Assembly (NCBI GenBank): GCA_048939015.1
Contig: JBHLPW010000069.1
Span: 1 to 22,625 of the forward strand
DNA: 22,625 bases
Source of the DNA: Promethearchaeota archaeon
GTDB taxonomy: Archaea > Asgardarchaeota > Lokiarchaeia > Sigyniarchaeales > SOKP01
Reading direction: 5' to 3'
Below the pieces are notes generated by a model, which had not been told where the DNA came from, made no database searches, and saw only the letters and a list, made by a program, of their open reading frames with translations. Position 1 is the first letter of the stretch. Each line of letters opens with the position of its first letter. The position numbers and the translations under genes were made by a program. This document shows positions 2,586 through 22,623 of this stretch, piece after piece.

Positions 2586-4403
2586 ATGCCTAAGTATACT
2601 GGTGGAGAGATAATCTCCAAATATTTAATAAAAGAGGGAGTAAAATACGTTGTTGGAATTCCTGGTCATGGAAATCTTCCTCTTGTAGATGCGTTCTTCA
2701 AAGATAAGGATAAAATCCAATTAATTCAACCCAAACAAGAAATGTCAGGAGTTCATCTTGCTGTGGGTTATTATCGAATTACAGGAAATCCTCTTTGCGT
2801 ATTCACTTCAATTGGACCTGGAGCAATTAATACTGCCATCGGAATTGCTGATGCTTTTGTTGATTCCTTTCCCTGCCTTGTTATAACTGGGGATACTCAT
2901 GTTCATATGAGAGGGAAAGGTGTTCTCCAAGAAATTGAAAGAAAAAAAGATTCTAGTATGCCTAAAATTTTAGAACCTATAGTAAAACGTAGCTTCGAGG
3001 TCGATACAGTTGGTCAAATAGCATCAATAATGCAAAGAGCGTTTAATATAATGTTAACAGGAAGAAGAGGTCCAGTCCATATTGATCTACCCATGGATGT
3101 ACAAGCTAATTCTGTCGATGTTGAAATTCCTGAACCTCTTGAACGAAGATCCTTTGGACGAGTTAGAAGTGATCCTGCGCTTATAAAGAAAGCTGTGCAA
3201 TTAATTAAAAATTCAAAAAGACCTGTGTTATTTATAGGTGGAGGTGCAATCACATCAGAAACCAGTGAAGAAATAAGAAACTTAGCAGAAAAAATTGGTG
3301 CAGCAGTAGTGGTAACTATGATGGGTAAAGACATTATAGATAATTCTCATCCACTTTATTGTTGGTCAGCTGGTTCAAAAGGTACCACAATTGGATTAAA
3401 AATGACCTCCAATGCTGATGTTATTCTCGCAATAGGCTGCAGGTTTGCAGATGAAACTGCAAGCTCATATAAAGAGGGTGTTAGTTTTTCCATTCCACCA
3501 ACAAAATTAATTCAAATTGATATTGATCCTCATGAAATTGGAAAGAATTATCCAGTAACTATTGGTATAGTTGGTGATGCTAAAGCATGTTTGAATCAGA
3601 TTTTGGAGGAATTAGGAAATTATTCAATTAATTATCTCAATACTGAATATTTTAAAGAAATTCAAGAGGAAAAAAGTAAATGGTTTAAATTTCTTGAGGA
3701 AAATCGAGATGATTCAAAAGTACCGGTTATGATTTCTACGGTTTTAAAAGAAGTTAGAGAGTTTTTTGACCGAGATGCCGTAATAGTTACTAGTTCTGGA
3801 AATGTACAAGCTCAGATGCTACAAGAATTAATATTTTATGAACCTAAAACATGTCTTACTGCGGGAGGTTTCTCTACAATGGGTTATAGTGTTCCGGCTG
3901 CAATTGGAGCAAAATTAGGATCGATGGATATTGGAAAACCGGATCGTCAAGTTGTTGCTCTAGTGGGTGATGGTGATTTTATGATGACTTTATCTGAAAT
4001 CTCTATAGCAGTTCAACTTGAATTAGAAAATATTTTCTTTATAGTTCTCAATAATCATGGTTGGATTGCAATTAAGGATTTACAACAAGCTGCATTCGGT
4101 GAAGATCGGGGATATGGTACTGCTTTTGAATACAAAAATGGAGAAACATATTCTCCTGATTTTGCTAAAATCGGTGAAGCATTTGGGTGTTATTCTGAAA
4201 AAATTTCTCGAAAGAAAGAGATAATTCCTACATTAGAAAGAGCTGCTAAATCAGGAAAACCAGCAGTAATAGATATTGAAGTTCAAAGGGAATATCCCTA
4301 TACTGGATCTCCAGCAGTAGGTTGGTGGGATGTACCTCGGCCTGTCTACTTGACTGAACGAAGAAAAGAATATGAAGAAGAAATTAAGGGAGAAAGACTC
4401 TAA
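2586..4403 (+). CDS. ThDP-dependent enzyme of the acetolactate synthase superfamily, IolD (trihydroxycyclohexanedione acylhydrolase)-like
   Basis: GIPGHGN, catalytic Glu in PKQE, TSIGPG, GPVHIDLPMDVQ, GFSTMGY, ThDP motif GDGDF...NNHG, C-terminal WWDVP. Confidence 0.85.
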   Translation: MPKYTGGEIISKYLIKEGVKYVVGIPGHGNLPLVDAFFKDKDKIQLIQPKQEMSGVHLAVGYYRITGNPLCVFTSIGPGAINTAIGIADAFVDSFPCLVITGDTHVHMRGKGVLQEIERKKDSSMPKILEPIVKRSFEVDTVGQIASIMQRAFNIMLTGRRGPVHIDLPMDVQANSVDVEIPEPLERRSFGRVRSDPALIKKAVQLIKNSKRPVLFIGGGAITSETSEEIRNLAEKIGAAVVVTMMGKDIIDNSHPLYCWSAGSKGTTIGLKMTSNADVILAIGCRFADETASSYKEGVSFSIPPTKLIQIDIDPHEIGKNYPVTIGIVGDAKACLNQILEELGNYSINYLNTEYFKEIQEEKSKWFKFLEENRDDSKVPVMISTVLKEVREFFDRDAVIVTSSGNVQAQMLQELIFYEPKTCLTAGGFSTMGYSVPAAIGAKLGSMDIGKPDRQVVALVGDGDFMMTLSEISIAVQLELENIFFIVLNNHGWIAIKDLQQAAFGEDRGYGTAFEYKNGETYSPDFAKIGEAFGCYSEKISRKKEIIPTLERAAKSGKPAVIDIEVQREYPYTGSPAVGWWDVPRPVYLTERRKEYEEEIKGERL

Positions 4404-5953
4404 TTCGAATAAATTGAATATTTTCTGTCTAAATCGTTTTTTAATTTGTTAGGAAAATTGAATTTTTTAGCATAAAAGTCAAATAATGCATCATCTATTA
4501 TTTTTTGCTCTTTAATATAATCATATTCTAAATTTTTTCTTTTATTTTTCAAAATAATATTTACAAGATTTTCTACCTTTTCTTTAATGTTATTATCAGG
4601 TTCTATAAAGGGTATGGCATGGATTCCTGTTATTTGGATACTATTAGTGTTATTAATAATTCCCTTAGCAAAGTAATTATACAACGAACTATTAAGTAAT
4701 CCTAACATATAATTAATTGAAACTGCTTTATTTCTGACGATAAAACCAATTGCTTTATTAGAATCCCAGTAACATCCCTTTGGCATATAACGTGCTGCCA
4801 ACCTTGAACTTACACCACTGATTACAATGCCCTCATTTTCAAATGGTACATTATTAGGAATATCGTAAATTTTTTGAGCTTCTACGCTCCAATCCAAGGC
4901 TTCCATTATCGGGCGATAATACTGGTCCGCTCCACCACGTTTCAAATAAGGCTTCCATTTACCAGATTCAAAATCTGTCCTTTTAATAATCTTAAATATT
5001 TTATTTGAATCATTGTTCTTTAGATTTCTGTTTTGAAAAACATTTGCTAATTCTGTACCTTCAATAGCAGCAATATAATTTCTATTATTATGGGTGTGCA
5101 TACCAATAAAACCCTTTAAGTATTCTTCTAACTTATGGGCTTTCTCAAATAATTTAATTACTTCTTCATAAATATTGGTATAAAAGATGTTAAAGGGTAA
5201 GGAGTCGTACTTAATTTGCTCTATTTTATTAACATGAGACGGAGATTGATATTCTTCTTCCTTCCTCAATCGAGGAATTATCCTCATTAAATTATTTTCT
5301 CTAATCTTTTTGTTTTTATATCCAGAGCATTTAGTTAAAATAATAATTACAGGACTAGTACTTACATTTTGATCCGAAAATAAATTTTTTGGAGCTAAAA
5401 GAATTTCATTAATTTTACAGTTATTAAGGATAAATTTTCTTAGCTTTTTATGTGTGCTTAAAGTTAAGAACGAATCACTTGTAATAAAACCTAATTTTCC
5501 TCCTTCTTTTAAACGCCAAATGCTATTAACAATAAACATTGCATAGGTTTCATGAGCATTTATTTTTCCATAAATTTTGTTTAATTTTGATCGATTTCTT
5601 CGCACATAAGTACTAGCTTTGTTTAAATAGGGTGGATTGCCCACAATAAAGTCAAATTGATTATAAGAATCCGGGTATAAAGTTAGTAAAGTATCTCGGG
5701 TTTTAAAGGAAATATTTAATTGTTTTATTTCAGTATCAAAACTCGAATCAATATCAAAAGCATAAATTTGACTTTTTTTAATTCCTGATTCTAATAATTT
5801 CTTAACAAAGATACCGGGTCCAACACACGGATCCAAAATTTTCTGATCTTCTTTAATTTCTCCTAATCGTGATAAAATATATTCTACTGTTTGAGGGGGT
5901 GTGGTAACAATTCCTAAATCTTTCCTATTTAGCTGGATTAACAACCAACTCAA
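4400..5953 (-). CDS. Orphan N6-adenine DNA methyltransferase (gamma class, Eco57I/TaqI-like) with C-terminal target recognition domain
   Basis: TTPPQTV (motif X), ILDPCVGPGIF (motif I), GNPPY (motif IV), LKEGGKLGFITSDSFL, LLNSSLYNYF. The TTG start is uncertain. Confidence 0.88.
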   Translation of the reverse strand: MSWLLIQLNRKDLGIVTTPPQTVEYILSRLGEIKEDQKILDPCVGPGIFVKKLLESGIKKSQIYAFDIDSSFDTEIKQLNISFKTRDTLLTLYPDSYNQFDFIVGNPPYLNKASTYVRRNRSKLNKIYGKINAHETYAMFIVNSIWRLKEGGKLGFITSDSFLTLSTHKKLRKFILNNCKINEILLAPKNLFSDQNVSTSPVIIILTKCSGYKNKKIRENNLMRIIPRLRKEEEYQSPSHVNKIEQIKYDSLPFNIFYTNIYEEVIKLFEKAHKLEEYLKGFIGMHTHNNRNYIAAIEGTELANVFQNRNLKNNDSNKIFKIIKRTDFESGKWKPYLKRGGADQYYRPIMEALDWSVEAQKIYDIPNNVPFENEGIVISGVSSRLAARYMPKGCYWDSNKAIGFIVRNKAVSINYMLGLLNSSLYNYFAKGIINNTNSIQITGIHAIPFIEPDNNIKEKVENLVNIILKNKRKNLEYDYIKEQKIIDDALFDFYAKKFNFPNKLKNDLDRKYSIYSN

Positions 5954-8820: not shown

Positions 8821-9738
8821 TTAAATATTTCTTTTCATTGGATTTTTATCCATACATGGAACTCCAAATTGACAGAAAGCACATCCTACTGGATAGGAAG
8901 GGTGCCTTAACCTCCAATCTACACGACGCCTATGAGGTTTTAAAATTGAACCAATACGTTCAATATTTATTTTTGCTACTTTTCGTAAATATTCACGACA
9001 TTTATCTTTATCATGTCCATTTTCATTAATAGCATTAGCTGGACACATCTCTTCACATTTTCTACAAGTACCTTCTGCATAAAATAAACAATTTCCATAA
9101 GGATCATTATTCTCTCTTTTTGTGATATTGAGAGGAGCATTGGTTAAGACAGAAGCTAACCTAATATTACAACCTACATCAGTAATTAATGCTTCGTGTA
9201 AACTAAACGTGCCTAATCCCGCAGCAAAAGCAATATGGCGTTCTGACCAATTGGAATAAATTTTTTGTGATACAATAATGCTGACGAACTCGGATAACAT
9301 TCCTGCTATTGCTATATAACCGTTTTTATGAAAAAAATCAATTATTTCTTTACATACAGCTTTTTTAAAAGGATTAGCATAATTTCTACCTACAGCATAA
9401 ATTTCAGCAGGGACAACTAGTTCTGATGTTCTTTTTATTTTTATACTTTCATTTCGAATTTTGTTAACATAAGGAAAAACTATAGAAACAACTCGTAATT
9501 TTGAAGGCTCTATTTCTCTCTGGCCTTCTTTTAACCAAAACTTAAGAGGAGTTAAATGTTCTGGTCCAACAACCTTCTTGAATTCCTGAAATATTGGATC
9601 ATCTCCTCGAGCTACTCCAATTATGGGATCATCGAAAATTCTACCTGCTCCATAATTCTCATGTAGCCGGTTAAGCTCACTTGTTTCAAAAAATGATTCA
9701 AGACGTTCAATTAATCTATTATTCAATAGAAGTTTCAC
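8821..9738 (-). CDS. Epoxyqueuosine reductase (QueG)/reductive dehalogenase-like protein, 2x[4Fe-4S], probably cobalamin-binding
   Basis: [27 protein letters not shown]-x7-CxxCxxxCP and C-x38-CxxC-x5-C. GTG start. Confidence 0.8.
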
Positions 9739-9816
9739 TTGACTCTTCTTTTAATAAAAATTTTTACCAATGGAGATTTTTTAAATTTAATTAATTATTT
9801 TATACTTGAATATTTT

Positions 9817-10917
9817 ATGTTAAAAGTCGGTATTATTGGCACTGGTGTTATCTTTGATCTTAATATATTAGGTTATTTAAATCGAGATGATACTCAAATC
9901 AAGTGTCTATGCAATAGAACTGTTGAAAAGGCTAAGCAAAAAATCGAAATTTTTAATTTAGATAAGTCTATTTCAATTTATTCTAATTATAAGGAAATGT
10001 TAGACAAAGAGGATATAGATATTGTTGAGATATTACTACCTCATCATCTTCACGCTGAAGCAACTATTTATGCAGCTCAAAAAGGAATAAAGGGAATTTC
10101 TGTTCAAAAACCGATGGCTTTAAGTCTAAAAGAAGCAGATACTATGATTAATGCTTGTAAGAATTCAGGCTCAATTCTTTCTATTTATGAGAATTTTGTA
10201 TTTGCACCTCATATTATGAAAGCAAAAGAATTATTAGATGATGATTATATTGGTGATCCATCATCACTGCGGATTAAAACAGCAATTGGTACAAAGGGTG
10301 GTTGGAAAATCCCAGAAAGTGCAGAAATATGGAGAAAAGATCCAAAAAAAATTGGAGGTGGACGTGATGGTTCACCAATTCTTTTCGATAATGGGTGGCA
10401 CGCTTTTTCTTTAGCCTGGTGGTTTTTCAATGAAGAAATTGAAAAAGTTTTCAGTTGGACAGATAATTATAGAGGTCTTGATGCTCCCGCATATGTAATG
10501 TTCAAATATAAGCAAAGTAAAGAACATGTTATCCCCCAATATGGTAATATGGAATTTACATTAATGCCAGAAATGAATTTCTCAGATTCAAAATACTATC
10601 CTATTGATGAATTTATTGAAATTATAGGTAGTCGTGGAATAATGAAGATAAACCAGGGAACATCAATAGGAAATAAGATGTCCGACTCTGAAGTCTTTCC
10701 TCCTCTCGTAATTATAAGAGATGGAAAAGTAGAAACTTACAAAGACTTTGATAAAGACTGGAAATATAGTTTTATTAATGCAACTAATTATTTCATAGAT
10801 GTTGTAAAAAATAATAAAAAACCAATACTTTCTGGCGAACAAGCACGATCTATATTAAGATTTAATCTAGCAGCAATTAAATCTGTTGAACAAGGAAAAG
10901 AGATATTTGTTGAATAA
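9817..10917 (+). CDS. Gfo/Idh/MocA family NAD(P)-dependent oxidoreductase
   Basis: MLKVGIIGTG, PHHLH, QKPMA, DNGWH. I moved the start from TTG 9739 to ATG 9817, which matches the paralog N-terminus MLRVGIIGCG and leaves room for a promoter. Confidence 0.9.
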   Translation: MLKVGIIGTGVIFDLNILGYLNRDDTQIKCLCNRTVEKAKQKIEIFNLDKSISIYSNYKEMLDKEDIDIVEILLPHHLHAEATIYAAQKGIKGISVQKPMALSLKEADTMINACKNSGSILSIYENFVFAPHIMKAKELLDDDYIGDPSSLRIKTAIGTKGGWKIPESAEIWRKDPKKIGGGRDGSPILFDNGWHAFSLAWWFFNEEIEKVFSWTDNYRGLDAPAYVMFKYKQSKEHVIPQYGNMEFTLMPEMNFSDSKYYPIDEFIEIIGSRGIMKINQGTSIGNKMSDSEVFPPLVIIRDGKVETYKDFDKDWKYSFINATNYFIDVVKNNKKPILSGEQARSILRFNLAAIKSVEQGKEIFVE

Positions 10918-10921
10918 AAAA

Positions 10922-12187
10922 TTAATCCACTAAAAGATCTTTATCATATTTCAATTCCTTTTGAATTAAACCTTCTTTCATACCTTTTTTAAAATCTTTT
11001 CTTATCCTCATAAAATATTTATGCAATCCTGCTCCATTAATATCATTAGGCCGTTCGACTGAGCAGGATCTATCTTTCTCATTTTCAGGTGTCATTTCTT
11101 CCCAAAAAATAGCTCTTTTTTGTTGATCTGAAATGTATGGCATTTTAGCAAATATTGTCAAGTTTTTTCCTTGCACTCCATCATAAATGGGCTTTCCATC
11201 ATTCTTCATAACTTCAATAAAATGTTCAGTGGAATTAATAAAAGAATATCTCCAATCTCTTGGAAGATCATTCCCATAAGAGTTTACTTCACCATTAGCA
11301 TATACTATAATTGGAGGGAATTGAGGACTATTTGATATAAAATTACCTCCAGCTGTACATTGGTTTATCCACATCAATCCTTTTGTTCCCGATAGTTCGA
11401 TATACTCATCGCAAGCATAGTAGTTGCTGGGGTAATATATATTTGGAGAGAGAGTAATCTCCATAACACCGAATTTAGGATAATTATCAACTTTTCCACT
11501 TGGATATTTCCAAAATATATAACTCGGTCCATCAAAAATTGCTGCAAAATATTCAATCCAACTATATACGTGTTCAACTCTTTCTTGACCCATTAACCAA
11601 AGACCCATTGAAAATTTATGAATTCCATCATCATAAATCCATGGTCCTCCACCACAAACATCAAAATTTTGTCGCCATCCTGTTGATTTAAGATCTCGAG
11701 GCATACTTGGTCCTGTAAACATAATAGTATTAATTCTAAAATTCAACAATTCTCCAATAATTCCATTATCTAATAATTCTTTTGCTCTTAAATATACAGG
11801 ATGAAATCGAAAATTTTCATAAACTTTCAACTTTACCCTCTCTTCTTCACAAACTTTTATCATTTTTTCACAATCGGTTATAGTATGAGCCATTGGTTTT
11901 TGTACTGAAATACCTTTGATTCCCGCTTTAGCACAGTATTCTGTCATTGGTCTATGAAGATGATGTGGAGTTAAAATTTCTACAATATCTAAATCTTCCC
12001 GATCAACCATTTCTCGATAGTCTAGGTATATCTTTATAGTTCTTAAGCCCCATTTTTCTAATTTATCTCTAGCTTTATTAATTTCACTATCAGATACAGC
12101 AACAATTTCTGTGTCTGGTGAATGGAGATAACCTAAAACATTTAGATTGGCGATATCCCCACAACCAATAATACCTACTCTCAACAT
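10922..12187 (-). CDS. Gfo/Idh/MocA family NAD(P)-dependent oxidoreductase (paralog of 9817-10917)
   Basis: MLRVGIIGCG, TPHHLH, QKPMA, YENFRF, DDGIH. Confidence 0.9.
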   Translation of the reverse strand: MLRVGIIGCGDIANLNVLGYLHSPDTEIVAVSDSEINKARDKLEKWGLRTIKIYLDYREMVDREDLDIVEILTPHHLHRPMTEYCAKAGIKGISVQKPMAHTITDCEKMIKVCEEERVKLKVYENFRFHPVYLRAKELLDNGIIGELLNFRINTIMFTGPSMPRDLKSTGWRQNFDVCGGGPWIYDDGIHKFSMGLWLMGQERVEHVYSWIEYFAAIFDGPSYIFWKYPSGKVDNYPKFGVMEITLSPNIYYPSNYYACDEYIELSGTKGLMWINQCTAGGNFISNSPQFPPIIVYANGEVNSYGNDLPRDWRYSFINSTEHFIEVMKNDGKPIYDGVQGKNLTIFAKMPYISDQQKRAIFWEEMTPENEKDRSCSVERPNDINGAGLHKYFMRIRKDFKKGMKEGLIQKELKYDKDLLVD

Positions 12188-12244: not shown

Positions 12245-13678
12245 TTAATTTCCTTTTTCCTTCATTTCATACCAATCTTTCATTTCAAATAATTGTGTAT
12301 CATCTTCTATGAGAAGGTCTCCCTTCGCATCTTTTCTAATTATTTCAAAAATTTTATCGCAAATATCTGGATTATCTTCAGCTATATTTTCATTCCATTC
12401 TGGATCTTTTGATAAATCGAATAATCTTTGGTATGACCTGTTATTAGAAGTAATAAAAGAAAAATTATCATCCTTATATAACGTACACGCATGAAAACCA
12501 CATGTAATATAATTACGTCCTTCTAAAACTTGATCATCTTCTTCAATGAAAAGTGAAAGATCAATTCCATCAAATACATTAGGCTTATCTTTTTCTAAAA
12601 ATCCAAAGATTGTAGGTAATATATCAAAATCATAAACATATGGCTTTTTTATTCTTATAGGTCCATGTACACTATTAGGTGGCTTTATCATAAAAGGAAT
12701 ATCAACTAACTCAGGATACATATAATAAGGGATCTTTCCTGTTGCGTTATGTTCTCCGATGGAATGTCCATGATCACTAATAAAAATTATTAATGAATCA
12801 TCATACAACTTCATATTTTTTAATTCATTTATAAAGTATCCAAACCACGCATCGCATAATGATACTTCTCCAGCATAACAAGCTCTCATATACTTTAACT
12901 CTCCTTCGGTGAGATAATCAATATCATGACGATATGCAGGTGTAATTACCTTCCTGCCATTATAATTCTTATCTACATATAGATCAAGGTATTTTTGAGG
13001 AGGATCCCAGGGTTCATGAGGATCAAATTCATCAATCAAACAAAATGTCTTTTTAATTACTTGAGTATCTTTAGTAAATTCAATAGCTTTCTTAAAAGTT
13101 TTAGCTGGAAAATAATTTTTCTCTGATTTTCTATTTTGAATATTGGGAAAATATTTATTTAATATAAGTTTTTGATACCCTCTACCAGCAAGATCTCCAC
13201 TAACAGTATGTTCTTTCATCATTTGATTAAGTTCAGACTTACCATCCCTTAAAAAAGCTCTAAATTTATCGTTTTCATGACCTCTGATCCAATTCCATTG
13301 ATCATAACCTAAATGAAAATTCATATTAGGTTTAAATTGATGATACGTGCTTGTTATAAATGATGTCTTGTATCCAAAGCTATTTAAATATTCAGATAAA
13401 TGTTTCTGTTGAGGAGGTATTGGATCCCATCCTGGAGCCTTAACTATATCATCAGTTCGAAGTTTTGGTCTCTGATGATTAAACGGAAAAGTACGAATTC
13501 CAGTATGAATAGCCCTCCGTACCGGTATTGTTGGTAATGATTCAGGATAAGCTTTATCGAATACAATACAATCTTTGGCAAATTCATCAAAATTTGGTGT
13601 TTTTATCCAGTCATTTCTATAAGTCGATCCAGTATGATCTTTCCTCAAGGTATCGAATATTATTAAAAAAATCTTCAT
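12245..13678 (-). CDS. Sulfatase-like hydrolase (alkaline phosphatase superfamily) with Thr at the formylglycine position
   Basis: IIFDTLRKD, KTPNFD, TIPVRRAIHTG (aligned to C/SxPxRxxxxTG), DPHEPW, YAGEVSLCD, SDHG, IPFMIK, DILPT, LFDLSKDPE. Confidence 0.9.
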   Translation of the reverse strand: MKIFLIIFDTLRKDHTGSTYRNDWIKTPNFDEFAKDCIVFDKAYPESLPTIPVRRAIHTGIRTFPFNHQRPKLRTDDIVKAPGWDPIPPQQKHLSEYLNSFGYKTSFITSTYHQFKPNMNFHLGYDQWNWIRGHENDKFRAFLRDGKSELNQMMKEHTVSGDLAGRGYQKLILNKYFPNIQNRKSEKNYFPAKTFKKAIEFTKDTQVIKKTFCLIDEFDPHEPWDPPQKYLDLYVDKNYNGRKVITPAYRHDIDYLTEGELKYMRACYAGEVSLCDAWFGYFINELKNMKLYDDSLIIFISDHGHSIGEHNATGKIPYYMYPELVDIPFMIKPPNSVHGPIRIKKPYVYDFDILPTIFGFLEKDKPNVFDGIDLSLFIEEDDQVLEGRNYITCGFHACTLYKDDNFSFITSNNRSYQRLFDLSKDPEWNENIAEDNPDICDKIFEIIRKDAKGDLLIEDDTQLFEMKDWYEMKEKGN

Positions 13679-13842
13679 GTCAACGGCACTTCTGGTTAAT
13701 ATATTTATTAATATTAAATCATGTAAAATAATTATAAGAATTATACTTAATTTGCATTGATTATTATAATTAAAAATTAATTACAGATAATAGCTATTTT
13801 GATAAGTTTTGTACAAAAAAATAAAAACTTTTATTTAGAAAA

Positions 13843-15051
13843 ATGAAGACTTTTTCGTTATTAATAAAGCCAGCATCAGCAGATTGTAATCTAAGATGTG
13901 ATTACTGTTTTTATATAGATCACCTTGAAAAGATTAAAGGAACTCCTCGAATGTCCGATGAGGTCCTAGAAAAAATGATCTCAAGTTATATGGAGTCAAA
14001 TCAAAATAATAATTATATGTTTGGATGGCAAGGAGGAGAACCAATGATTATGGGATTAAAATTCTTTCAAAAGGTGGTAGAATTTCAAAAGTTTTACGCT
14101 CCTCCTGGCGCAGTTATAAGTAATGGACTACAAACAAACGGTACTCTTATTACTAATGATTTTGCACGCTTTCTTGGAGATTATAGATTTTTACTTGGAG
14201 TAAGTCTTGATGGTCCCGCGTATATACATGATCACTATAGAAAAACTATTGGTAAAAAACCCTCTTATAATTTGGTTATAAATGGTATTGAACATTTGAG
14301 ACAAAATAAGGTAGAATTCAATATATTAACTCTTGTAAACAATGAAAATGTAAGAAAAGCGAAAGAAATTTATCAATATCTAAAACAACAAGGTTTTTTT
14401 TATCATCAGTATATTCCCTGTGTTGAAGTTGATGAAGATTTTAATCTACAATCCTTTTCAATAACAGGTGAAGAATGGGGAAATTTTCTCTGTGATCTAT
14501 TTGATCAATGGATAAAAGAAGATATAAATAAAGTTTCTATTCGACTTTTTGATTCCATCCTTGAATATTTGGTGTATGGACGCTATAATGTATGCCATAT
14601 GGGCAAAAATTGTTGCCAATATTTTGTAATTGAATACGATGGGAGTGTTTATCCATGTGATTTTTTTGTTCGGGATGATCTATTATTAGGAAATGTTCTT
14701 TTTGATGAATGGGACACTATTCTAAAATCTCCGATTTATCGTAAATTTGGACAGGAAAAATCCAAGTGGCATCAAATTTGCAATTCATGTCCTTTTATAA
14801 ATTTATGCCATGGAGGTTGTCAGAAATTCCGTATAGGGAACCCTCAAGCTTCGAATAAATTGAGTGTTTTATGTAAGGGATGGAAAAAATTTTATACACA
14901 TACTTTGCCACGGTTTAGGATCATTGCTGATAGAATAAAAAAGGGAAATGAAATTAATTCATTATCTCAAATTAAATCCAAGAATGTTGGACGTAATTCC
15001 CCTTGTCCGTGCGGAAGTGGAAAAAAATACAAAAATTGTTGTATGAGATAA
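13843..15051 (+). CDS. Anaerobic sulfatase-maturating enzyme (radical SAM/SPASM, anSME/AtsB/ChuR-like) with C-terminal SEC-C motif
   Basis: IKPASADCNLRCDYCFY, WQGGEP, QTNG, SLDGP, QYIP, SPASM cysteines (CHMGKNC, YPCDF, CNSC, CHGGC, LC) and GRNSPCPCGSGKKYKNCC. Confidence 0.93.
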   Translation: MKTFSLLIKPASADCNLRCDYCFYIDHLEKIKGTPRMSDEVLEKMISSYMESNQNNNYMFGWQGGEPMIMGLKFFQKVVEFQKFYAPPGAVISNGLQTNGTLITNDFARFLGDYRFLLGVSLDGPAYIHDHYRKTIGKKPSYNLVINGIEHLRQNKVEFNILTLVNNENVRKAKEIYQYLKQQGFFYHQYIPCVEVDEDFNLQSFSITGEEWGNFLCDLFDQWIKEDINKVSIRLFDSILEYLVYGRYNVCHMGKNCCQYFVIEYDGSVYPCDFFVRDDLLLGNVLFDEWDTILKSPIYRKFGQEKSKWHQICNSCPFINLCHGGCQKFRIGNPQASNKLSVLCKGWKKFYTHTLPRFRIIADRIKKGNEINSLSQIKSKNVGRNSPCPCGSGKKYKNCCMR

Positions 15052-17880: not shown

Positions 17881-18630
17881 ATGACTGATATTTTCACTGA
17901 CTTTGGAATTGTCGGACTTACGTTCTTTTACATCCTTTTAACAATTTTTATTCCCCTAATATTATATAAAAAGGAAAAAATAACGAAATTTGCAGCACGA
18001 AAATCAGTACATATGTTCGCGGGATTAGCAGTTTTAAGCTCTCCTTTTTATTTTTGGCCATTTTGGCCAACGATTATTGCAGGTACCTTGACTATATTAG
18101 TATATTTCAGCTCAAAAGAATCAAAAGTAAAGCAGTTAAAAGATTTATATGATGCAATATCTGAAGAACAAGAGGAAGGACTAAAGAGAGCTTTTCTTCA
18201 AGGTCCATTTTTCTACTGCCTTTCAATTACTTCTTTAGTACTAATTTTTGGAATTTTTGCTCGAGACCGATTCTATTTTCCGATCGCTGGAGTATTAATA
18301 ATGATAGTCGCTGATACTTTAGCTTCAGTTATAGGAAAACGATGGGGAAAGATAAGTATAAGTTTACCTTGGACAAATTCAAAGAGAACTCTTGAAGGGT
18401 CATTAACTTTCTTTATTTCAGCTTTTCTGTTATGTTTTCTTTCTTTTTTTCTCTTTGGTTTGTTAATTCCTACTTTTCAAGAGCCTTTAGCGTTACCCAC
18501 GATTTTAATATATTCTTTAATCACCAGTGCTATAGCAACTATAATCGAATTGATTTCTCCAAGCACATTTGATGATTTGACTGTACCAATAGGCAGTACT
18601 TTGATAATTTATCTCCTAACTTTAATTTAA
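17881..18630 (+). CDS. CTP-dependent lipid/isoprenoid-alcohol kinase (SEC59/DGK1/VTE5 family), integral membrane
   Basis: RKSVHMFAG, DTLASVIGKRWGK, KRTLEGS, DDLTVP; multiple TM helices. Confidence 0.85.
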   Translation: MTDIFTDFGIVGLTFFYILLTIFIPLILYKKEKITKFAARKSVHMFAGLAVLSSPFYFWPFWPTIIAGTLTILVYFSSKESKVKQLKDLYDAISEEQEEGLKRAFLQGPFFYCLSITSLVLIFGIFARDRFYFPIAGVLIMIVADTLASVIGKRWGKISISLPWTNSKRTLEGSLTFFISAFLLCFLSFFLFGLLIPTFQEPLALPTILIYSLITSAIATIIELISPSTFDDLTVPIGSTLIIYLLTLI

Positions 18631-18676
18631 TAATTTTCAATTTTTTATTCTTAATATTTATATAAGATATCTTAAT

Positions 18677-20068
18677 ATGGAAAATATAGTAAAATCCTTT
18701 GATGTAATAGTTGTAGGTGCTGGCACAGGAGGAGCTACTGCGGCCAGATTTACTGCAAGGAAAGGTTTAGATGTCTGTTTAATAGATAGAAAACCTAAAT
18801 TGAAGATTGGAGAAAAAATATGTGGCGATGCGGTAGGAAATGAAATTTTTGATTTCTTAAAGATTAACCATCCAAAAAATGAAGAACTTTCATGTTATAT
18901 AAAAGGGGCAAAATTATACTCACCAAACCTTAAGAAATGTATCACATTAGTGGATCCGAAACAAGCGGGATACATTGTAAATAGATTAGAATTCGGTCAA
19001 AGATTGTTAAATGAATCTTTAGATGCGGGTGTGAAGCAATTCTTAGATAATACAATGGCTTTAGACTTATTATATAAAAATGGAATTGTTAATGGGCTTC
19101 AAGTTAAATTAGAAAATAAAGAAAAAATAGACCTAAAAGCCAAAATCGTTATTGATGCAAGTGGGTTTTATTCTCCATTGAGAAAAAAAGTGAAAAGTGC
19201 CCTAATTGAAAAAAATGTACCGAAAAATGATAGTATTTTATGTTATCGCGAGATTGTGAAATTTTCGCCCTCTGAACAACAAGTAAATGATCCTGAATAC
19301 ATTACAATTATTTTAGATCAAGAAAAGGCTCCTGGAGGATACATCTGGTATTTTCCGAAAAATGAATCTACTATTAATATTGGAATTGGAACCTTTATGG
19401 ATTATCGAGGGAAAGTCAAGGATTTCTATAATAAAAATGTATTTCAAGAATTTGTTATTAGCTCCAATGTTGATATTCTCTCATCAGGGGGAGGTGTAGT
19501 TCCAGTAAGAAGACCACTATGGTCTTGTGCTGATAATGGATTTATGTTAGTAGGAGATGCAGCTTGTCAAGTTAATCCTCTTCATGGTGGAGGAATAGAT
19601 CCATCTATGAGGGCTGGATTTCATGCTGCTAATTCAGCTATTCACGCTATAGAAAATAATGATACTTCTATAAACAACCTATGGGATTATAATTATAATG
19701 TAATGACAAGCTTTGGAGCTGAATTTGCTTCATTAGATTTATTAAGAATAGTTTTACAAAATCTCTCAAATGAGGAATTGAATTTTGGTTTAGAACGAGA
19801 TTTGTTAAGTGGAGAAGAAATTTTAGAAATTTCCTCAACAGGAGGATTAAATTTATCTTTAATTAATATGGCAGTTAAAGCCTTTAAAGGGCTTTCCCAA
19901 CCTGATTTATTATTAGATCTTAATTATCTCAGAATTAGAATGAATGAAATTGCTAAACTTTATAAAAATTTTCCTAAAACTCTAGACCAATTTTCTAATT
20001 GGAAAGAAAAAGTTATCCAAATATATAATAAAATTGAAAAAATGATTGTGAATACAAAAAAAAAATAA
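18677..20068 (+). CDS. Digeranylgeranylglycerophospholipid reductase (geranylgeranyl reductase family, FAD)
   Basis: GAGTGG, KICGDA, signature PGGYIWYFP, GDAACQVNPLHGGGI; context next to GGGPS and DGGGPS. Confidence 0.92.
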   Translation: MENIVKSFDVIVVGAGTGGATAARFTARKGLDVCLIDRKPKLKIGEKICGDAVGNEIFDFLKINHPKNEELSCYIKGAKLYSPNLKKCITLVDPKQAGYIVNRLEFGQRLLNESLDAGVKQFLDNTMALDLLYKNGIVNGLQVKLENKEKIDLKAKIVIDASGFYSPLRKKVKSALIEKNVPKNDSILCYREIVKFSPSEQQVNDPEYITIILDQEKAPGGYIWYFPKNESTINIGIGTFMDYRGKVKDFYNKNVFQEFVISSNVDILSSGGGVVPVRRPLWSCADNGFMLVGDAACQVNPLHGGGIDPSMRAGFHAANSAIHAIENNDTSINNLWDYNYNVMTSFGAEFASLDLLRIVLQNLSNEELNFGLERDLLSGEEILEISSTGGLNLSLINMAVKAFKGLSQPDLLLDLNYLRIRMNEIAKLYKNFPKTLDQFSNWKEKVIQIYNKIEKMIVNTKKK

Positions 20069-20081
20069 AAATCTAATAGAT

Positions 20082-20909
20082 GTGAATTTTGTGGTTGATA
20101 TTATAATTGATGAGTTTATTGAAAATAGTACTTATGAGTTTTTAATAAAAAAAATCAATACTGAAGGAGCTTTACATTTTTCTCTAATTGATCCTGATCC
20201 ATTAAGGCAAGGACCTTCCAAAGCGGGAAAGATGGCTAAGTATGCTGCTGACGCTGGTACAGATGCTATTTTAATAGGGGGAAGTACAGTGTTTGATCAA
20301 ACTTTTGTTGATAAAACAATAATTGCAATAAAGGAAAAAGTTTCAGTACCAATTATCATATTTCCAGGAGGTATTAGTAATGTTTCCAAGCATGCTGACG
20401 CGATTTTTTTTATGTCATTACTGAACTCATCAGATCCTTATTCTATTATAGGGCAACAAGCCCTTGCTTCATATACTATTAAATCTTATAACTTAGAATA
20501 TATTTCAATGGCATATTTAATAATTGAACCTGGAGGCAGTGCAGGATGGATAGGTAATGCAAAATTACTGCCTAGAAAGAAACCAAAATTAACTGCTGCT
20601 TACGCATTAGCAGCAGAAATGTATGGTTTTAAAATTATCTATTTAGAAGCTGGTTCAGGAAGCGAAAAAATTCCTGTTGAACATATAAAAACATGTTCCT
20701 CAATTCTAAATATACCTATAATTGCAGGAGGAGGTGTTGATAACAAAGAAGATGCAAAGACCTTTGTAGACGCAGGAGCAGACATCATAGTGATGGGTAC
20801 ATACATCGAAAATCATATACTCAAGGATAATGGAAACTCGTTAAAAGTTATAATTGATGAAATTAAAAATGCTGGAAAATCTCAGAAAAAAAATTTTCCA
20901 ATAAGATAG
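20082..20909 (+). CDS. Geranylgeranylglyceryl phosphate synthase (group II GGGPS)
   Basis: HFSLIDPD, IGGST, FPG, SLLNS, YLIIEPG, AGWIG, YLEAGSG, AGGGV. The GTG start is uncertain (alternative at 20091). Confidence 0.93.
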   Translation: MNFVVDIIIDEFIENSTYEFLIKKINTEGALHFSLIDPDPLRQGPSKAGKMAKYAADAGTDAILIGGSTVFDQTFVDKTIIAIKEKVSVPIIIFPGGISNVSKHADAIFFMSLLNSSDPYSIIGQQALASYTIKSYNLEYISMAYLIIEPGGSAGWIGNAKLLPRKKPKLTAAYALAAEMYGFKIIYLEAGSGSEKIPVEHIKTCSSILNIPIIAGGGVDNKEDAKTFVDAGADIIVMGTYIENHILKDNGNSLKVIIDEIKNAGKSQKKNFPIR

Positions 20910-20922
20910 AGTGTATTTTCTC

Positions 20923-21795
20923 ATGAAATTAAAAGATACCATTGAAATTCTTCGACCTGTTAATGATCTAATGGGAAGTCTAACTGTTATTATAGGAATT
21001 TTAAATACAAGATTAGGAATTGACCCTATTAAGCTAATTATAAATCTAATTTTAGGTGTCCTTACTTATTTCTTTATTGCAGGTTCTGGGATGGTTATTA
21101 ATGATTATTACGACATTGAAATTGATAAAATTAATCGTCCTGAAAGACCTATTCCTAGAGGATCAATAACATTGAAACAAGCAAAGGTCTTATGGATAGT
21201 AACTTCTCTTATAGGCATCTTTATAGCTATTTTCAATAGTCTTTTGTTCAATATCGGATATTTGAATATTGTTATAGCTGTTTTTTTTGCATTTATAGGA
21301 TGGTTATATGCAGCTTGGGGTAAAAAAAGTGGATTCTTTGGAAATATTATTGTTAGTACATCCTTTTCGATAGGACTCATTTACGGAGCAGTTTTAAACA
21401 ATTCTATTATTCCTCCATATATCTATTTCTTCTTTTTAACCGCATTTTTTCTTTTATTATCTCGAGAAATTATTAAAGGATGTGAAGATATTGAAGGAGA
21501 TAAAAATGAAGGTGTAAAAACATTAGCTATTAGGATAGGGATCAAAAAATCGACGATAATTTCTTTAGTTTTTGCGATATTGGCTATAGTTTTCTTTATA
21601 TTACCTTATTTTACTAATATTCTAAATCCCTTGTTGTTTTTGATTTCTATGTTTTTTGGATTGGTATTAGTAATTTATACTATCATATTAATGCTTAAAT
21701 CTGACTTATTGAGAAAAGATTTTAAAAAAATTAGTTTATTGTTAAAAGTATCTATGTTTCTGGGATTAGTTGCTTTTATCTTTGCAAGCTTTTAA
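20923..21795 (+). CDS. Digeranylgeranylglyceryl phosphate synthase (UbiA prenyltransferase family)
   Basis: LRPVN, INDYYDIEIDKINRPERPIPRG, REIIKGCEDIEGD, multiple TM helices; follows GGGPS. ATG 20923 preferred over GTG 20911. Confidence 0.9.
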   Translation: MKLKDTIEILRPVNDLMGSLTVIIGILNTRLGIDPIKLIINLILGVLTYFFIAGSGMVINDYYDIEIDKINRPERPIPRGSITLKQAKVLWIVTSLIGIFIAIFNSLLFNIGYLNIVIAVFFAFIGWLYAAWGKKSGFFGNIIVSTSFSIGLIYGAVLNNSIIPPYIYFFFLTAFFLLLSREIIKGCEDIEGDKNEGVKTLAIRIGIKKSTIISLVFAILAIVFFILPYFTNILNPLLFLISMFFGLVLVIYTIILMLKSDLLRKDFKKISLLLKVSMFLGLVAFIFASF

Positions 21796-22623
21796 TAATT
21801 CCAAAATCCTATTAAAATCCTTTTTACTAATTAAATAATTTAATCTTTCCTTTATACTTTCATTTATATTGTAATAAGGAAAAGTTTGAATTAGTTTTCT
21901 AACTTGGGTTAAACCTAGATATTTTCTCGTATAATCTGCATCAGAATATTTATAAGTCGTGAGAAAATCGCTGTCTAATTTCTCTCTAAAAACTTCTAAA
22001 ATGAAATTGAAATATTTTCTTAACAAATATTGATCATTTGGTGTAAATTTTGACTCAAAGAATATTTGTATCGGATGAGTTCTGTATGTATTTCCTGATA
22101 CTAGAATTCCGTTAACTTTAAAATCTTCTGAGATAATTCCTAATCCTACTCTTCCTTCATAAGATCCTGTATCAACTGTTCTCACGTATAAAATGTTTGA
22201 CTTGATTCTCTTCTTTAAACTATTATTAACGTGCAAAATCAATGTTTTATATTTGTTATTTTGATATTTATTAGCATCAATAACAGAAATATCATTGTTA
22301 CCTTGATTTTGCTGTATATCTTTTTTTAATAAGTAATAATGCACGTTCAAAGGTTTCTGAACATAATATGTCTCCAGAAATTCATCAAATTCAGAACCAG
22401 CACGATATTTGAATTTTGGTTTAAGAATATACTTCTTTTCGAATAGATGATTATTGCTTTTTATCTTTATTCCATTAAATTCCACATTTTCAACTTTAGA
22501 TTCTTTTTTCTTAATAAAAAAAGCAATACATATATTCGTTCCTGTATATTCAAATATTTTAGTTTCAAAAATTACCATTCTTTTAATTTCATAACATTTT
22601 AGGAAATCTGTACGAAATTTATT
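21766..22623 (-). CDS. C-terminal part of a probable N6-adenine DNA methyltransferase / RM protein (5' end outside the window)
   Basis: The frame stays open to the window edge (NKFRTDFLKCYEIKRMVIFETKIFEYTGTNICIAFFIKK), resembling motifs VII-VIII of gamma-class MTases. Motifs I and IV are not visible. Confidence 0.6.
   Translation of the reverse strand, partial: NKFRTDFLKCYEIKRMVIFETKIFEYTGTNICIAFFIKKKESKVENVEFNGIKIKSNNHLFEKKYILKPKFKYRAGSEFDEFLETYYVQKPLNVHYYLLKKDIQQNQGNNDISVIDANKYQNNKYKTLILHVNNSLKKRIKSNILYVRTVDTGSYEGRVGLGIISEDFKVNGILVSGNTYRTHPIQIFFESKFTPNDQYLLRKYFNFILEVFREKLDSDFLTTYKYSDADYTRKYLGLTQVRKLIQTFPYYNINESIKERLNYLISKKDFNRILELLKACKDKSN

Follow-up and report, generated by a model that had tools for sequence, protein, structure and literature searches.

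S1 sulfatases require a Cys or Ser in the signature C/S-x-P-x-R, and the S1 set described in PMC5066984 consists of 78.9% Cys and 21.1% Ser members. Thr proteins were left out of S1 in that work, and the Thr group discussed there is a different one (T-x-N-x-E). PMHs and phosphodiesterases of the same fold (2VQR, 2W8S and 4UPH; S1_0 in SulfAtlas) carry formylglycine formed from Cys. LtaS, EptA and NPP use an unmodified Thr as nucleophile. Here we analyzed a 22,625-nucleotide contig of a Promethearchaeota archaeon (JBHLPW010000069.1; the whole stretch is called the window below) in which a gene for an S1-sulfatase-fold enzyme with Thr at the nucleophile site lies head-to-head with a gene for an anaerobic sulfatase maturase (anSME). 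A previous sequence-only reading had placed Thr50 at the formylglycine site, within T50-I-P-V-R-R-A-I-H-T-G, and had described the 164-bp spacing and an intact maturase; all three observations proved exact (Table 1).

The AlphaFold model of the Thr enzyme (pLDDT 94.6) found its top structural matches among S1 sulfatases (Z 34), followed by YejM (Z 30), EptA and LtaS (25-27) and NPP (21-22). The S1 structures (6HR5 S1_25, 4UPL SpAS2, 7OZ8 BT1918 S1_46, 6PT4 and 9KOQ) match it in fold along their full length (Z 32-34, rmsd 2.8-3.8 Å) and have the metal ligands, x-P-x-R-x4-T-G, HisB and LysB in common with the Thr enzyme, so that both the sulfatase fold and the single-metal site (D9, D302, H303) are present. 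However, the identity is 19-25%, Thr50 aligns with the C/S site of the solved sulfatases and with Cys51 of the Cys-type profile, and by alignment LysA is replaced by Asp/Ser and HisA by Tyr/Pro. The LysA column of the profile alignment is Ser in the window enzyme and Asp in most family members, and the conserved His113 falls one residue beyond the HisA column. Around these positions, the Loki subclade combines Ser110 with His134, the wider family Asp110 with Gln134, and the bathyarchaeial members Ser with Gln. PMHs share the Asp-His second ligand pair and, going by the alignment, the loss of LysA and HisA, but carry Tyr in the LysA and Thr/Asp in the HisA position; a PMH identity found no support in the window enzyme, which lacks this Cys/Tyr/Thr-Asp pattern and scored 105 bits for PehA against a cut-off of 900. 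LtaS, EptA/MCR-1, YejM/PbgA and NPP share the Thr at the nucleophile site, a metal site and the core fold, but they are structurally less similar than S1, lack x-P-x-R and are membrane-anchored transferases or two-zinc enzymes. The N-terminal membrane domain of the LtaS/EptA type was absent from the Thr enzyme (~24 bits against cut-offs above 560), whose catalytic domain begins at residue 1, which points to a cytoplasmic enzyme.

Table 1. Features of the window and, in the last two lines, related genes at other loci
Feature	Position	Strand	Remarks
DNA methyltransferase-like ORFs	4400-5953; 21766-22578		at both block ends
QueG/reductive-dehalogenase-like iron-sulfur protein	8821-9738		block-conserved; far under both family cut-offs
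Second Gfo/Idh/MocA oxidoreductase	9739-10917	+	belongs to resident block
Gfo/Idh/MocA oxidoreductase	10922-12187	-	same strand, 57 bp downstream of Thr gene, probably in one operon with it
Thr-type S1-sulfatase-fold enzyme, 477 aa	12245-13678	-	Pfam PF00884, 102.7 bits
Lys315	12734-12736	-	role predicted from S1 sulfatases
Asp302/His303, remaining metal ligands	12770-12775	-	roles predicted from S1 sulfatases
His221	13016-13018	-	role predicted from S1 sulfatases
Residues 110-134	13306-13351	-	Ser110 and His134 in Loki subclade
S110-T-Y112-H113, LysA/HisA region	13340-13351	-	profile alignment, column counts
Signature T50-x-P-x-R54-x4-T-G60	13499-13531	-	Thr50 codon ACA at 13529-13531
Asp9, first metal ligand	13652-13654	-	role predicted from S1 sulfatases
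Divergent intergenic region, 164 bp, AT-rich	13679-13842		conserved only in 8 linked relatives
anSME, 402 aa, radical SAM, SPASM, SEC-C tail	13843-15051	+	TIGR03942, 412 bits (cut-off 349)
GH94-like glycoside phosphorylase/hydrolase, 889 aa	15056-17725	-	profile scan, locus comparison
Archaeal lipid synthesis cluster	17881-21795		fixed flank of variable slot
Cys-type sister clade members	L251:8545-10320; L241:8944-10713; L242:5734-7506		same unusual active-site motifs as Thr clade
Bathyarchaeial anSME subtype	L189:6459-7598; L190:7158-8294; L191:2134-3285; L192:14481-15608		Gln64 replaced by His, further differences in the pocket

Thr was found at the nucleophile site in 115/115 of the close homologues whose motif could be read and in 125 of 129 distant cluster representatives, down to ~30% identity, the remaining four having Cys; conservation across homologues, which the earlier reading had proposed to check, is thereby borne out. 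As Thr is family-wide and each of the four Thr codons occurs at this position, the ACA codon is neither a point mutation nor a sequencing error, and both were ruled out. Pro52 and Arg54, which are recognized by anSME, are retained in the family, Arg54 being nearly invariant in column counts; D9 and H221 are invariant, and D302, H303 and K315 are at least 98% conserved. The closest homologues belong to Promethearchaeia (Loki) and related Asgard genomes, and related clusters occur in Poribacteria and Chloroflexota. This Thr-type clade is real and large, and no description of it was found in the literature searched. Deep-node support in the protein tree was too low to decide on a single origin of Thr. 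Thr-type groups of the same fold without the motif Arg (T-x-P-x-F/Y/H) were also seen, often in multiple copies per genome (G050, G039, G040 and G169; L129-L188 and L342-L360).

The enzyme most likely acts in the manner of LtaS, EptA and NPP, with attack by the Thr hydroxyl followed by water, and the conserved unmodified Thr nucleophile that the earlier reading had kept as a fallback is supported. An alternative is that Thr50 is unmodified and not a nucleophile at all, and positions a metal-bound water, or that the protein descends from a Cys sulfatase and is now slow or merely binds its ligand. A Thr-sulfate adduct would have no gem-diol elimination route, which speaks for this view, as does the replacement of LysA and HisA, the latter being conserved in known arylsulfatases (PMC5488252). 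Yet Thr, Arg, both metal Asp, His221 and Lys315 are near-invariant to ~30% identity, as fits active catalysis, and a Cys-type sister group shows the same LysA/HisA replacements, which are thus not peculiar to Thr enzymes. A non-nucleophilic Thr50 is quite improbable. The sister group also has the motifs R-G-Q/H-E-x-D and F-D-P-H-E-P in common with the Thr clade; its proteins (~590 aa, C-x-P-A-R-R-E-L-H-T-G) are encoded immediately upstream of anSME.

The earlier reading had gone further, proposing that a dedicated anSME may oxidize Thr50 in vivo to 2-amino-3-ketobutyrate, the hydrated ketone serving as a formylglycine analogue. The retention of Pro52 and Arg54 is in keeping with this idea, and anSMEs have reportedly oxidized Thr-containing peptides in vitro. 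The maturase of the window aligned along its length with the Clostridium perfringens anSME 4K36 (E 8.5e-79) and has all the checked cluster and active-site residues of anSMEcpe (4K36-4K39; TIGR03942), including C15/C19/C22, the SPASM cysteines, Tyr24 and Asp273; it differs in its archaeal host and its C-terminal SEC-C tail. A specialised anSME was ruled out: around the active site, none of the 20 positions compared distinguishes the window copy from unlinked anSMEs, and linked copies group within the unlinked ones of Loki genomes. The source genome (4.86 Mb, 94.9% complete, 6.5% contaminated) contains one anSME and five Cys-x-P-x-R sulfatases, and FGE, as another maturase, was found in none of five genomes checked, this one included. 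As part of our best explanation, the anSME is most likely the general maturase of these five enzymes. In the intergenic region, a sigma-70 promoter scan, not suited to archaea, stayed at chance level.

Co-location of the Thr gene with anSME, which the earlier reading had also proposed to check, turned out to be confined to close relatives. Of 79 genome loci, eight have the two genes side by side; these relatives are 86-92% identical, and the entire block, DGGGP synthase to methyltransferase, is common to all eight. Among 80 metagenome loci, many of them on short contigs, anSME lay within 5 kb of the Thr gene in three, each also with a Cys sulfatase, and no maturase was in view near four distant Thr homologues, a weak indication given their short contigs. 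A conserved linkage was thus absent over both sets of loci. The Thr gene occurs in the same block without anSME at L009, L010 and L024; in relatives of this kind, a GH94-like gene lies directly upstream on the same strand at ~60 bp (60 bp at L009 and L010, which are 84% and 81% identical). The anSME in turn occurs in the block with no adjoining sulfatase in G024, G027, G214, G254, G258, G266, G193 and others. Six same-genus genomes have a Cys-type sulfatase in the slot, on the anSME strand and 34-94 bp upstream of it, in what looks like a true operon, and the sulfatases adjoining anSME in G020, G043 and G047 are Cys-type too. That anSME adjoins Cys sisters whose active site is the same can be counted in favor of the ketone. 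Within the genus, the slot beside the resident anSME is empty or holds either a co-oriented Cys sulfatase or the Thr gene; the head-to-head pairing reflects local gene order and is not evidence of a ketone cofactor.

Several neighboring genes deserve mention. The GH94-like enzyme of the window gave weak Pfam scores, and two subtypes alternate at this place among close relatives. The lipid cluster comprises membrane kinase/cytidylyltransferase-like, geranylgeranyl reductase, and GGGP and DGGGP synthase genes, named by sequence reading and not by family scans.

Co-occurrence was tabulated for 101 genomes of the class with a completeness of 85% or more, with Cys sulfatases called by profile search plus motif reading and motifs read in borderline cases. 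An anSME was present together with Thr and Cys types in 42 genomes, with Cys types in 31, with Thr types but no Cys types in none, and alone in one; where it was not found, three genomes had both types, seven Cys alone, two Thr alone and 15 none. It occurred in 73 of 83 Cys-positive against 1 of 18 Cys-negative genomes, and within the former the Thr gene added no significant association (p 0.17; as related genomes are not independent, the p-values of the co-occurrence overstate). The anSME tracks Cys-type, not Thr-type, sulfatases. An anSME was present in 42 of the 47 Thr-positive Loki genomes, which can be read in favor of the ketone since both proteins usually share one cytoplasm; Cys sulfatases were present in 45 of the 47. 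The two Thr-only Loki genomes (G007 and G008, carrying L009 and L010) are 95% complete, have an intact Thr gene and yielded no anSME, FGE or Cys/Ser-x-P-x-R sulfatase; they are sisters of the same genus and count as one event. Absence from a MAG is imperfect evidence, as 10 of the 83 Cys-positive genomes also lacked an anSME match. G218 (= G009, the L011 genome; 10 contigs, 92% complete) has ~20 Cys-type sulfatases and no anSME or FGE match, and G188 (100% complete) and G242 have Cys types and no anSME match, owing either to gaps in the assemblies or to a different route of maturation. The small MAGs G039, G040 and G050 had several Thr paralogues, no Cys type and no anSME match. Within 121 Bathyarchaeia genomes, the Thr clade was found in 14, anSME in nine and both in three, leaving 11 of the 14 Thr-positive genomes in which anSME was not found.

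The best case for the ketone is G049. In this single 2.3-Mb chromosome, 4.1 kb separate the Thr gene from a gene of the anSME family, and no Cys/Ser client sulfatase was found in it or in G048 and G044, where the anSME-family gene is unlinked to the Thr gene. But the G049-type maturases form a separate subtype with several pocket positions changed, and bathyarchaeial matches of similar score were obtained in three genomes (G095, G100 and G138) in which no sulfatase was found; the presence of the subtype is therefore no sign of a Thr substrate. The bathyarchaeial subtype of Table 1 adjoins a conserved 237-aa hydrolase-like gene. The G049-type case keeps the ketone idea above zero. Hydration of a methyl ketone is far poorer than that of an aldehyde, so that the ketone would make a weak gem-diol nucleophile. 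According to PMC5066984, Thr oxidation would yield a ketone and formylglycine from Thr has never been shown. The linkage is not conserved and the maturase has Cys clients elsewhere, an outcome that the earlier reading had itself named as refuting its proposal, and the Thr gene persists in genomes missing both anSME and Cys sulfatases. Oxidation of Thr50 by anSME in vivo is quite improbable, and the prospect that Thr50 in anSME-bearing cells becomes a methyl ketone active in catalysis, and so a new cofactor derived from protein in a large, overlooked sulfatase-fold clade, is correspondingly slim. Accidental oxidation of some Thr50 by the co-resident anSME, with no selected function, would fit the shared cytoplasm of most Loki genomes and the intact x-P-x-R determinant, but it predicts no linkage either way and is very improbable.

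The residues, fold, conservation and linkage pattern are established by the comparisons above, whereas the lack of modification at Thr50, the chemistry and the substrate are inferred. The Thr enzyme is most likely a maturase-independent cytoplasmic ester hydrolase that uses an unmodified Thr, with the anSME serving Cys sulfatases. Since the adjoining maturase appears to serve other sulfatases, Thr would most likely be used as it is. A single metal held by Asp9, Thr50, Asp302 and His303 would activate the Thr hydroxyl, which would attack the sulfur or phosphorus of the ester substrate (sulfate or phosphate); departure of the leaving group would be assisted by His221 and Lys315, and water would release the Thr-ester. 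Across nine AS/PMH enzymes, the average cost of having an unmodified Ser in place of formylglycine is about tenfold (PMC5488252), which makes a plain hydroxyl workable in the sulfatase scaffold. The adjacency to anSME would arise because the Thr gene occupies a variable sugar/sulfatase slot beside it. Neighbors at 51 Asgard loci include MFS_2 sugar transporters (14), Gfo/Idh/MocA oxidoreductases (14), GH94-like (12) and GH2 (4) genes, the Gfo/Idh/MocA and GH94-like counts coming largely from one shared block. These transporters, glycoside hydrolases and oxidoreductases point to sugars, and an imported sugar carrying a sulfate or phosphate ester is the probable substrate. In our judgement a sulfate ester has about an even chance, a phosphate or phosphonate ester a somewhat smaller one, and another substrate class is unlikely.

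A large archaeal and bacterial clade labelled 'sulfatase' cannot make formylglycine. If its members cleave sulfate esters with a plain Thr, they would represent a maturase-free sulfatase mechanism; if phosphate esters are the substrate, sulfatase counts in sediment metagenomes would be inflated. The genus offers a natural comparison, as a single slot next to one anSME is taken by either a Cys or a Thr sister enzyme, and the two share their active-site motifs.
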